Shown one piece after another: positions 12,448 to 14,487 of a stretch of DNA of 59,083 bases. Position numbers and translations under genes: made by a program. The stretch covers positions 138,636-197,718 of the forward strand of contig CAVGVF010000001.1 of NCBI GenBank assembly GCA_963632615.1, read 5' to 3'. Every line of letters starts with the position of its first letter. Positions within the stretch are counted from its first letter, which is position 1. The notes beneath the pieces were generated by a model. That model made no database searches. It was not told the DNA's origin and saw nothing but the letters and a program-made list of their open reading frames with translations. This stretch comes from an uncultured Eubacteriales bacterium (GTDB lineage Bacteria > Pseudomonadota > Alphaproteobacteria > RF32 > CAG-239).

Positions 12448-13941
12448 CTATTTAATACTTTTTAAAACTTTGCGCAGACGGTTAAGTTCTTTGCGGTCAA
12501 TTTGCGCTTCCGCGTCATCCAAGGTCTTGGAGAACAGGCGGATTTCCTTTGGAGCGCCGCGATTGACTCTGGTTACGTCAATATCCATTTTGTTCCAAAT
12601 TTCAAACATATCATCGGCATTGATAATATTTGCCATCTGGATAACCACGTAGGATTTCACTTCTTGCTCAAAATCTTCTTCCGCCAGTTTATCACGAATT
12701 ACATTGCGTGCAACATCTAGTTTGCGCACCGGTGAAATTCTGTGGCTGTTTTCGGAGAACCAAAGCGGTTCTTCGCCGTTAAACAGCTCTTCATCCGCCA
12801 GCCAATCGCCGCTTTCTTTGTCGGCCAGGCACAGGCAGATTTCCGTATCCGAAACGCCGACAAAGTCTATAACAGTATTGTTTACATTTACGCCGGCAAT
12901 AACATCATAGCCTTTTTGCTGCAAAATGTCATAAATCGGGCTGCGCTGCTGATTGCTGCTGTCATTATTTTCGGCAGTGTCGCCGTTATTCTGCTTATTA
13001 TTGCCGCGGGATTGCTTGTCATTGCGGCTGTCATCACGGCTGTTTTGCTTATTATTTTTTTGCCGGCTGTCTTTATTGTCATTGTTTTTGCCATTGCGGC
13101 TGCTGCGCGGCTGATAGTCGCTATCGTCATCTTCATCATCATCGTCAAACACCGGTTTTTTGTTTTGGCGCTTAGAATATGAATCGTTATTATCGCGTTT
13201 GTTGTTTTTACGCGGTTTTGCCGGCATTTCGTCATCATCATCGTCATCAAACACCGGCTTGGATTTTGCCGGTTCTTTTTTCTTTAAGATATCGGCTTTC
13301 TCAAAAGAGTCGATATCCAAATCAAAATCATCGTCATCATCGTCAAATTTGAACAGCGCATGGTCAATAGCAGACGGAATATCAGTTTTTTTGGCCGGTT
13401 TAGAAGCGGCTGCCGCCATCGGAGCCGGAGCAGGAGCTCTTACTTGCGACGGCAATACGGCGCTGCCGCCCACTCCTGCCGTAACCGGAGCCGCGGTTTT
13501 GCCGTCAGAATAGTCGGAAATCGGCATTCTGAAGCCAACGCCGGCCGGACGTACTTGTTTATACGATTTTTTCTTTACCACACCGTATTTGTTGTTGGTT
13601 TTCATAACATTGATAGGCGTTTTAATCAGGCGGCGGTACAAAGTAACCGGCGACATTATAATGTCATATATAACGCGCTCCCACGCCACCATGCACAGCG
13701 TCCACCAGCCGGTAATAAGCATAGGGAAAAAGGTTACAAGAATAATCACAAAAGCCCATTCTTTAGGCGCGCGGATAACCCAGCCCGCTTTCCAAAGCGC
13801 ATAAGCTTGGCGCCAGTGGTCAGGCCAGAAAATATCAAAATGCCAGTTGCAGAGCATAATCACGCGGATGCCTTCTATGAAGACTATGCTCCATAGGCAT
13901 CCCACGATAATTATTCTTGCAAAGACAATTAAGGATTTCAC
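12448..13941 (-). CDS. membrane-anchored protein of unknown function (N-terminal TM module, roughly 220-aa charged low-complexity linker, C-terminal globular domain)
   Basis: GTG start with GGAG 8 nt upstream. Its stop lies 8 nt before the T4CP ATG, and the T4CP SD sits inside that gap. Three FDDDDDD-type tracts are present. I recognised no family. Confidence 0.7.
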   Translation of the reverse strand: MKSLIVFARIIIVGCLWSIVFIEGIRVIMLCNWHFDIFWPDHWRQAYALWKAGWVIRAPKEWAFVIILVTFFPMLITGWWTLCMVAWERVIYDIIMSPVTLYRRLIKTPINVMKTNNKYGVVKKKSYKQVRPAGVGFRMPISDYSDGKTAAPVTAGVGGSAVLPSQVRAPAPAPMAAAASKPAKKTDIPSAIDHALFKFDDDDDDFDLDIDSFEKADILKKKEPAKSKPVFDDDDDDEMPAKPRKNNKRDNNDSYSKRQNKKPVFDDDDEDDDSDYQPRSSRNGKNNDNKDSRQKNNKQNSRDDSRNDKQSRGNNKQNNGDTAENNDSSNQQRSPIYDILQQKGYDVIAGVNVNNTVIDFVGVSDTEICLCLADKESGDWLADEELFNGEEPLWFSENSHRISPVRKLDVARNVIRDKLAEEDFEQEVKSYVVIQMANIINADDMFEIWNKMDIDVTRVNRGAPKEIRLFSKTLDDAEAQIDRKELNRLRKVLKSIK

Positions 13942-13995
13942 CCGTCTTACTCCATACTTTTCTTTTTAGTATAATCCCAATTTATAAAGAGAGTG

Positions 13996-14487
13996 TTAAT
14001 TGATTTCATTTTCTATCTTTTCAACAATTTCTTTACGAAATTCTGCCGAATCGGCTTTTTGCGGATTCTTTTTATTTTCCAATTCAATACGCTCTTGCAC
14101 CAGTTGCTCTATGGTTTTTTTCTCCTCGATTTTTAAGTTTTTAATGTTTACCTCCGGCATGCCGCCGCTGTATTTATCCAGTCCGCGGTTAGATATCCAG
14201 CTCAGCGGTTTCATAATCAGGTTCATATACTGATATTTTGCCAGCCTGCGCCATATCCAGAATACGATTGGAAAATACGAGATAATTCCCAAAAGCATAA
14301 AGATGTCGCCGGCATGCAGCACTCCGCCGTCATTCCAATAGTTGCTGATAGAAGCGTAGGTCTGCGGAGCTAAAATGTTAATTTGATAGCACAGCATAAA
14401 CAGCTGCTGATAAATCAAAAGCAGCAGTGCGCTGAATAAGGCGCCGGCAATCAAAACGCACAGGTAGTGAAGAGTCTTTTTTATCAT
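13996..14487 (-). CDS. small membrane protein of unknown function, paralogous to the N-terminus of the 497-aa protein
   Basis: Overlaps the upstream 674-aa gene by 4 nt. It has TM segments and a charged coiled-coil-like tail. It shares the pattern MLC..P..W.xG.V..A....FP....IM.P with residues 28-100 of the 497-aa protein. Confidence 0.7.
   Translation of the reverse strand: MIKKTLHYLCVLIAGALFSALLLLIYQQLFMLCYQINILAPQTYASISNYWNDGGVLHAGDIFMLLGIISYFPIVFWIWRRLAKYQYMNLIMKPLSWISNRGLDKYSGGMPEVNIKNLKIEEKKTIEQLVQERIELENKKNPQKADSAEFRKEIVEKIENEIN

Follow-up and report, generated by a model that had tools for sequence, protein, structure and literature searches.

We analysed a 59,083-nucleotide (nt) stretch of an uncultured alphaproteobacterial genome, referred to below as the window, in which a series of five minus-strand genes, arranged head to tail, encodes proteins of 353, 674, 163, and 497 residues followed by a type IV coupling protein (T4CP). 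Our subject is the pair formed by the 163- and 497-residue proteins, and their relationship to the coupling ATPase encoded beside them (Table 1). The 497-residue gene starts with GTG, with GGAG located 7 nt upstream, and its TAG stop codon is followed by 8 nt, AGGGAAAA, and then by the ATG of the T4CP gene at position 12439. An earlier note on this DNA had remarked on this spacing and on a T4CP Shine-Dalgarno sequence within the gap, and both observations hold, the Shine-Dalgarno sequence lying within or overlapping the 8 nt. Further upstream, the 674-residue gene overlaps the start of the 163-residue gene by 4 nt. A strong terminator-like hairpin follows the T4CP gene, where transcription of the unit likely ends; the five-gene cluster itself contains no such hairpin of similar strength. 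This layout shows that the 163- and 497-residue genes are co-transcribed with the gene of the VirD4-type coupling ATPase. The 353-, 674-, 163-, and 497-residue proteins match no Pfam or NCBIfam family, except for a sub-threshold NERD match in the 497-residue protein, and a PADLOC search with the same four proteins returned no match to a defence system.

By BLASTP, the 497- and 163-residue proteins align only marginally, with 21% identity across 107 columns and E 0.019. We built family alignments of 36 diverse members for the 497-residue protein and 30 for the 163-residue protein, whose family consists of proteins of ~160 residues, and compared the two profiles using hhalign. The families match with a probability of 96.2% and an E value of 2.4e-9 (score 54.6), residues 2-82 of the 497-residue protein being paired almost without gaps with residues 3-82 of the 163-residue protein. 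Because transmembrane (TM) proteins can match spuriously, shuffle controls were run. Scores average 12.2 in 100 full column shuffles, with a maximum of 31.2, and in 100 shuffles made within TM1, loop, TM2, and tail, so that the hydrophobicity pattern is kept, the mean is 12.3 (standard deviation 2.2) and the maximum 18.2; a reversed-profile control scores 11.3. The segment-wise shuffles rule out a chance likeness of two hydrophobic hairpins. In addition, hidden Markov models (HMMs) of the N-terminal module find the partner protein in both directions, the 497-family model matching the 163-residue open reading frame (ORF) at E 1e-7 and the reverse search giving 4e-7, with the next best ORF in the window at E ~0.1. 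Moreover, the 163-family profile, when searched against 1.84 billion proteins, recovers divergent 497-type members of 350-400 residues, matching residues 1-110 at E 7e-6 to 5e-4. At the level of profile comparison, the 163- and 497-residue proteins are established as paralogs that share a homologous N-terminal two-helix hairpin. The earlier note, which had aligned the two proteins by eye, was thus correct in proposing one shared membrane module, and the similarity is above random expectation. It had placed the similarity from residue ~28 onward, however, whereas the homologous region begins at residue 2-3 and takes in all of TM1. Its landmarks survive in part. The Trp (W50/W51 in the 497- and 163-residue proteins, respectively), Gly (G53/G54), and Pro (P73/P73) residues are invariant or nearly so in both families, P73 of the 163-residue protein being the nearly invariant case, but the 163-residue family does not conserve the MLC motif.

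Hydropathy and AlphaFold2 (AF2) models place the segments in the same order in both proteins, namely TM1, a loop of ~27 residues, and TM2, and topology prediction agrees with the earlier expectation that the aligned segments are equivalent helices. TM1 of the 497-residue protein spans residues ~4-33, a Trp-rich loop predicted to be periplasmic covers residues 34-60, and TM2 spans residues ~61-87; AF2 places helices at residues 2-35, 40-51, and 59-106. Each family has an invariant Pro after TM2 (P98 in the 497-residue protein and P94 in the 163-residue protein), the pairing of which depends on the alignment, BLASTP pairing P98 with P94 and hhalign pairing a later Pro with P94. As inner-membrane proteins, both are predicted to have N-in/C-in topology with a periplasmic loop. 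This topology is supported by the charge distribution, which is strongly positive inside, with a net charge of +9 over residues 88-145 after TM2 of the 497-residue protein, and charges of +2 at the N-terminus, -1 in the loop, and +3 after TM2 in the 163-residue protein. In the 497-residue family, dozens of positions in the membrane module are invariant across proteins that are 38-96% identical overall, including E23 and R26, which sit inside TM1. As judged from these alignments, such conservation is unusually high for a plain anchor. It fits specific intramembrane contacts with a very conserved partner, for which the T4CP, with a median identity of 79%, would be the candidate.

Table 1. Coordinates of the operon features in the window, with the evidence or description for each.
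Feature	Position	Strand	Evidence or description
353-residue protein, operon gene 1	16579-17640	-	ORF; acidic disordered N-terminal half, conserved C-terminal domain
674-residue protein, operon gene 2	14484-16508	-	ORF; charged, fast-evolving
163-residue protein (paralog 1, truncated), operon gene 3	13996-14487	-	Hairpin plus short charged helical tail
497-residue protein (paralog 2), operon gene 4	12448-13941	-	Hairpin, disordered arm, NERD-like C-terminal domain
VirD4/TraG-type T4CP, 738 residues, operon gene 5	10223-12439	-	Pfam and NCBIfam matches
Two-helix module of 163-residue protein, residues 1-~100	14188-14487	-	hhalign, shuffles, reciprocal HMMs
Two-helix module of 497-residue protein, residues 1-~110	13612-13941	-	hhalign, shuffles, invariant residues, AF2, charge
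Charged tail of 163-residue protein, VNIKNLKIEEKKTIEQLVQERIE.E.KK, residues 111-163	13999-14157	-	Conserved
Basic juxtamembrane motif of 497-residue protein, NNKYGVVK(R/K)KSYKQ(I/V)RPAG...PISDY, residues 116-145	13507-13596	-	Predicted cytoplasmic
Acidic motif of 497-residue protein, IDHALFKFDDDDDDFDLDIDSFEK, residues 191-216	13294-13371	-	Short linear motif inside disordered arm
Variable disordered linker of 497-residue protein, K/R/D/E/N-rich, residues 217-330	12952-13293	-	pLDDT (predicted local distance difference test) ~40; gap-rich alignment
C-terminal domain of 497-residue protein, residues 331-497	12451-12951	-	Predicted restriction-endonuclease-like (NERD-like)
Intergenic gap, AGGGAAAA, 8 nt	12440-12447	-	Between 497-residue gene stop and T4CP start
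Intrinsic-terminator-like hairpin, 11-bp stem and T run	10183-10208	-	Directly after T4CP stop

Relatives of the 497-residue protein occur in at least 370 species-level genomes, all from uncultured gut or rumen Alphaproteobacteria, and we examined synteny and identity in 80 of these species-level loci. The gene order 353-674-163-497-T4CP is conserved across them, with the T4CP directly following the 497-residue gene in 79/80 and the 163-residue gene present in 73/80. The operon adjoins rluD in 62 of the 80 loci and rpoH in 55. The window itself is chromosomal core, containing gidA, gidB, parAB, dnaE, rluD, rpoH, an RND (resistance-nodulation-division) pump, addAB, an xerC-like gene, and murJ. 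Its first part (1-8580) opens with gidA (mnmG)-gidB-parA-parB followed by dnaE, and this start places the T4CP operon probably within ~15 kb of the replication origin region. Searches returned no plasmid homologs of the 497-residue family. A mobile-element or plasmid origin is ruled out by the chromosomal core setting, the synteny, and this absence of plasmid homologs of the 497-residue protein, and the five-gene operon is shown to be chromosomal and vertically inherited. Four genome bins (L002, L004, L005, and L056) are labelled in public records as Bacteroidaceae, [Ruminococcus] gnavus, or Lachnospiraceae despite a clearly alphaproteobacterial operon, which probably reflects bin contamination or mislabelling.

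Family matches identify the ATPase encoded by the last gene as a VirD4/TraG-type (type IVA) coupling protein, with a hit to Pfam T4SS-DNA_transf at 1.5e-56 and others to TraG-D_C, TrwB_AAD_bind, and the NCBIfam VirD4/TraG models. Its translation has a Walker A motif (PPGTGKT), a Walker B motif (LFILDEF), two N-terminal TM helices, and an acidic C-terminal tail. When PDB sequences were searched with profiles of the T4CP and both hairpin families, nothing useful emerged. Median identity to the window copy is 79% for the T4CP (79 loci), 80% for DnaE, and 76% for RpoH, and within the same genomes (L001-L080) the identity of the T4CP exceeds that of RpoH by a mean of 2.5 points. The corresponding medians are 52% for the 497-residue protein, 53% for the 353-residue protein, and 42% for the 163-residue protein. 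By these identities, the T4CP is under housekeeping-level constraint, which is unusual for a T4CP and suggests a central, possibly essential, role. Conservation on a par with RpoH and DnaE further suggests that the ATPase is central to the lifestyle of these abundant uncultured gut bacteria.

The origin of the pair is illuminated by a sister lineage, which we reached through matches of the 163-family profile (loci L083, L089, L093, L096, and L099). This lineage carries the same five-gene operon, with 353-residue homologs in the same position and a T4CP that is 58-59% identical to that of the window and directly follows the 497-type gene in all five loci. Both sister-lineage paralogs are ~350 residues long and contain the N-terminal module (HMM E 1e-10 to 1e-24), and their C-terminal domains can be aligned, having an invariant W, W, SP, and I-N in common. 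The second paralog, which is the ortholog of the 497-residue protein, retains KKKSYKQTRP, the D...D-x-E residues, and GDWLADEE, and it has neither the long acidic/basic linker nor the acidic motif. In the first paralog, the acidic residues of the C-terminal domain have been lost. The presence of two full-length paralogs with alignable C-terminal domains implies that an ancestor duplicated a whole gene of ~350 codons. This comparison of homologs shows the 163-residue protein as a truncated first paralog whose C-terminal domain was lost in the window's clade, and the long disordered arm with its acidic motif as a clade-specific gain of the second copy. It also shows the arrangement of the pair plus T4CP to be older than the split of the two deep lineages. 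The earlier description of one module with two different tails is therefore accurate for the window, but the two tails are a derived state, given that the sister paralogs share a C-terminal domain. Moreover, the sister-lineage operon divergently adjoins three tandem VirB6/TrbL-like genes, which links the operon to type IV secretion machinery. A VirB6 search yielded 43 homologs, of which we looked up six. Five of these are encoded next to the T4CP operon in sister-lineage loci, the sixth belongs to a locus without a T4CP (L098), and none was assignable to the window's clade. The L098 locus (3119-15108) has a VirB6-like cluster, a neighbour resembling the 353-residue protein, and a 1148-residue LPD1/LPD3 "polyvalent" protein. 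Because it contains neither a T4CP nor the hairpin paralogs, L098 indicates that the operon can be split between loci.

More than 850 homologs of the 497-residue family were found, all of them unnamed or "hypothetical", and the membrane-module family is undescribed, having no Pfam or NCBIfam model. Beyond the membrane, the 497-residue protein continues with the basic juxtamembrane motif, in which N117, Y119, G120, K123, K125-K128, R131, P132, G134, P140, I141, and D143 are invariant. The acidic motif IDHALFKFDDDDDDFDLDIDSFEK follows inside the disordered arm, with invariant columns from H194 to E214 and a net charge of -9. In the linker beyond it, length differs greatly among species and amounts to ~115 disordered residues in the window copy. 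The shorter paralog ends in its charged tail, where N114, K116-K119, E121, K123-T125, Q128, E132, and R133 are invariant. We modelled the C-terminal domain of the 497-residue protein (167 residues) alone with AF2, using an alignment of 24 sequences, and obtained a confident model (pLDDT 93; predicted TM-score (pTM) 0.88) of an alpha/beta domain with ~8 strands, consisting of an alpha-beta-beta-beta-alpha-beta core plus additional elements. All of the top Foldseek matches of this domain are PD-(D/E)xK proteins, with probabilities of at most 0.96, E values of 0.018 or weaker, and TM-scores of ~0.4; these neighbours are NucS/EndoMS, AF1548, RPA0323, R2 endonuclease, Hjc, HincII, and Card1 (2vld, 1y88, and 3fov among the entries). 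A Foldseek search with the full-length model was uninformative owing to the disordered arm. Pfam NERD (PF08378) matches 27/36 family members at E <=0.1 (best 6.5e-6), the window copy scoring 16.1 bits (E 0.016), under the gathering cutoff of 22.1, and a few homologs carry a precomputed PF08378 annotation.

The residues that correspond to the catalytic site bear on whether this domain cleaves DNA. Strand 2 carries D359, and strand 3 ends with D374-K375-E376; D359, D374, and E376 are invariant, and the canonical D...(D/E)-x-K motif is replaced by D...D-x-E, with Glu at the Lys position. Strand 3 is followed by a nearly invariant acidic insertion of ~30 residues (374-405), GDWLADEE.FNGEEPLWFSE.SHR.SPV, with a net charge of -7. 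The domain as a whole is acidic (pI, the isoelectric point, 4.7; net charge -9), and Q342 and K343 on its first helix are also invariant. One could argue from the NERD-like restriction-endonuclease fold and the invariant D359, D374, and E376 that the 497-residue protein is a membrane-anchored, catalytically active PD-(D/E)xK nuclease, or a factor that binds DNA, and that it processes DNA or passes it to the coupling ATPase in a relaxosome-like role or a role in DNA release or uptake, especially as T4CPs classically couple DNA substrates and as the missing Lys might in principle be provided by the invariant K343. We consider this distinctly unlikely, however. The low pI, the charge of the invariant insertion, and the exchange of the catalytic Lys for Glu argue against DNA binding. 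In addition, the Foldseek matches are weak, the first-paralog copies of the sister lineage have been kept despite loss of the acidic residues, and there is no relaxase, oriT-like feature, or mobile-element context at this chromosomal core locus. On the basis of the model, the C-terminal domain is more likely to be a diverged NERD-like protein-interaction module than a DNA nuclease.

The two genes that open the operon encode proteins of a different character. In the 353-residue protein the N-terminal half is disordered and extremely acidic (net charge -29 over 140 residues), and the C-terminal domain (...NFPVDAERLI.NFF...) is conserved, mildly basic, and kept in the sister lineage; this protein is possibly an adaptor or chaperone-like partner. 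The 674-residue protein is highly charged, with one central hydrophobic segment (NEWFLASLNWSVNKVVGGVCGAV), and has a median identity of only 26%, falling to 21% in loci where the T4CP is still ~75% identical; it could be a surface-exposed or secreted component. Charged, disordered, and fast-evolving stretches, such as those of the 674-residue protein and the variable linker of the 497-residue protein, might instead be translocation signals read by the T4CP, in which case the 497-residue protein, or the 353- and 674-residue proteins, would be secretion substrates or effectors. Effectors of type IV secretion systems (T4SSs) that contain TM domains do exist (PMC11602083). Set against this idea, the hairpin and C-terminal domain of the 497-residue protein are nearly invariant, unlike those of typical effectors, and both of its termini are predicted to be cytoplasmic with a strong positive-inside anchor; we therefore regard the effector explanation as very unlikely.

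Two neighbouring elements lie outside the operon. Immediately downstream of the T4CP operon (9572-10033, minus strand) is a gene with a terminator of its own, which encodes a periplasmic LTXXQ protein of Spy/CpxP-like type and was detected in only 12/80 related loci. In the sister lineage (L083, 12682-14253, plus strand) and ~10 own-clade loci (L053, L057, L058, L060-L062, L065, L068, L070, and L073), the T4CP gene is followed by a conserved gene pair that is absent from the window. These genes encode a protein of ~350-377 residues, whose N-terminus is rich in Pro/Gln and whose C-terminal domain is conserved, and a protein of 144 residues, neither of which has a Pfam match; it is speculation that they resemble an effector/immunity pair.

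Accessory subunits of coupling proteins decide what T4SSs export, and they are well described for the type IVB system of Legionella and much less so for VirD4-type systems. We think it somewhat more probable than an even chance that the hairpin pair are accessory subunits of a type IVA coupling complex, whose membrane core they would make up together with the T4CP. This proposal is drawn from the adjacency to the T4CP in 79/80 loci and in five sister-lineage loci, the 8-nt gap, the shared operon, and the VirB6-like neighbours in the sister lineage. In such a complex, the two hairpins would pack with each other and with the TM domain of the T4CP, and the cytoplasmic arm of the 497-residue protein, comprising the basic motif, the acidic motif, and the NERD-like domain, would serve as a platform for the docking or regulation of substrates or adaptors. 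Its C-terminal domain would probably not act as a DNA nuclease, and the protein would work like Legionella DotM without being related to it.

Several observations weigh against a role in a coupling complex. Functional inference for the pair rests on gene linkage and conservation, and the family evidently does not require a neighbouring T4CP gene. P0246 (L086, 8001-9086), a divergent family member of 361 residues, has the hairpin and a NERD-like domain; its gene stands by itself, directly after those of the ATP synthase F0 b subunits (atpF) and ahead of one for a lytic transglycosylase, with no T4CP nearby. Invariance of the acidic triad D359/D374/E376 throughout the aligned 497-residue lineage may leave room for catalysis. 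Moreover, no VirB genes are present in the 59-kb window, or within 10 kb on either side in the 80 own-clade loci, and the loci examined do not demonstrate a complete T4SS in the window organism. P0246 and the reliance on linkage would also be compatible with the two membrane proteins having an envelope function of their own, sharing an operon with the T4CP but forming no complex with it. That explanation appears unlikely in view of the adjacency, which holds in 79/80 loci and between lineages whose T4CPs are only 58% identical, the 8-nt gap, and the extreme conservation of the membrane module. These findings offer concrete candidates for experiment in the two hairpin proteins, the invariant acidic motif, and the degenerate nuclease-like domain, and they give a clean case of a nuclease fold that has probably been taken over for protein interaction. 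If the pair does belong to a coupling complex, a nuclease-like domain that is probably non-catalytic has been co-opted on the long disordered arm of an accessory subunit.

Among known systems, the closest plasmid T4CPs are 33-34% identical to that of the window over their full length and are encoded in canonical virB2-virB11-virD4 operons. These VirB/VirD4 operons, on megaplasmids of Erythrobacter and Sphingosinicella, have the same type of T4CP. Their virB11 gene is located directly upstream of virD4, however, and nothing in them matches the hairpin module, whereas virD4 of the window stands apart from any virB genes in a chromosomal operon with four uncharacterised genes. When HMMs of the N-terminal module were searched against the ORFs of these virB operons, no match was found at E <=1 except a chance match at 0.86. 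Identity of the hairpin proteins with VirB2 or VirB3 was rejected, there being no virB-operon, Pfam, or NCBIfam match. In other systems, T4CPs are tethered or stabilised by small membrane partners, among them TraI/TraJ of pIP501 and CagZ/Cag-beta of Helicobacter. They share with the role proposed for the hairpin pair the concept of an accessory protein, encoded beside the T4CP gene, by which the T4CP is stabilised or localised; these partners are not known to have a PD-(D/E)xK-like domain or to form paralog pairs. NERD proteins are often membrane-anchored, and the C-terminal domain of the 497-residue protein resembles NERD and other PD-(D/E)xK domains in its alpha-beta-beta-beta-alpha-beta core, the Asp on strand 2, and the acidic residue ending strand 3. 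It differs from them in its D...D-K-E motif, the ~30-residue acidic insertion, the pI of 4.7, and the sub-threshold Pfam score, and it has no close structural neighbour among the PD-(D/E)xK matches (TM-score ~0.4). Our literature searches found no work that combines RF32 with type IV secretion, or NERD with a coupling protein.

DotM is the system with which the earlier note had compared the 497-residue protein, suggesting a positional or functional analogue while declining to claim homology. DotM, encoded upstream of dotL, has three predicted TM helices and an all-alpha cytoplasmic domain, in which basic patches recognise effector tails that are acidic and rich in Glu; deletion of DotM destabilises the T4CP, and TrbA of R64 is a distant DotM homolog (PMC5802825). 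The gene order trbA-trbB-trbC is seen in R64. Because the 497-residue gene likewise lies upstream of a T4CP gene and its product has TM helices at the N-terminus ahead of a cytoplasmic domain, the protein might be a highly diverged true homolog of DotM/IcmP/TrbA, but this has effectively been refuted. Pfam DotM_C (PF23127) matches neither the 497- nor the 163-residue protein at E <=1, and at E <=0.1 it finds none of the 36 aligned members of the family, whereas R64 TrbA, as positive control, matches at 1.6e-49. Comparison of the two families with R64 TrbA by hhalign gives probabilities of 0.4% and 0.8%, and no DotM was found among the hits of PDB-sequence profile searches or the Foldseek neighbours. 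Homology is therefore ruled out by DotM_C with its positive control, hhalign against TrbA, and the PDB profile searches, and the caution of the earlier note was justified. Its positional comparison was equally sound, with the gene directly upstream of the T4CP gene in all but one of the 80 loci, and in terms of gene order the 497-residue protein is a positional analog of DotM from an unrelated family.

The likeness to DotM comprises an N-terminal TM anchor with a cytoplasmic domain, a gene upstream of the T4CP gene, and a presumed accessory role to the coupling ATPase; by this analogy, a DotM-like accessory role for the 497-residue protein is plausible. The differences are considerable. Two TM helices are predicted rather than three, and the cytoplasmic domain is alpha/beta, PD-(D/E)xK-like, and acidic, whereas that of DotM is all-alpha with basic patches. 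Judged on composition alone, the basic effector-binding patches of DotM have no counterpart in the 497-residue protein, which itself carries an acidic motif, as opposed to the DotM system, where the acidic residues are on the effector tails. Moreover, the 497-residue protein belongs to a tandem paralog pair, unlike DotM, and its partner T4CP is VirD4-type rather than of the DotL/TrbC-type (type IVB); R64 TrbC, a DotL-type T4CP, has no Pfam match at E <=0.001, and so is not matched by the T4SS-DNA_transf model either. Tentatively, and with a chance that we would put a little below even, this widespread clade of human and animal gut Alphaproteobacteria carries a vertically inherited VirD4 coupling complex, conserved at housekeeping level and with the hairpin pair as a new class of accessory subunits in its membrane core, that is an independently evolved type IVA counterpart of the Legionella DotL-DotM-DotN complex. 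If so, elaborate substrate-recruitment platforms would not be peculiar to type IVB systems.

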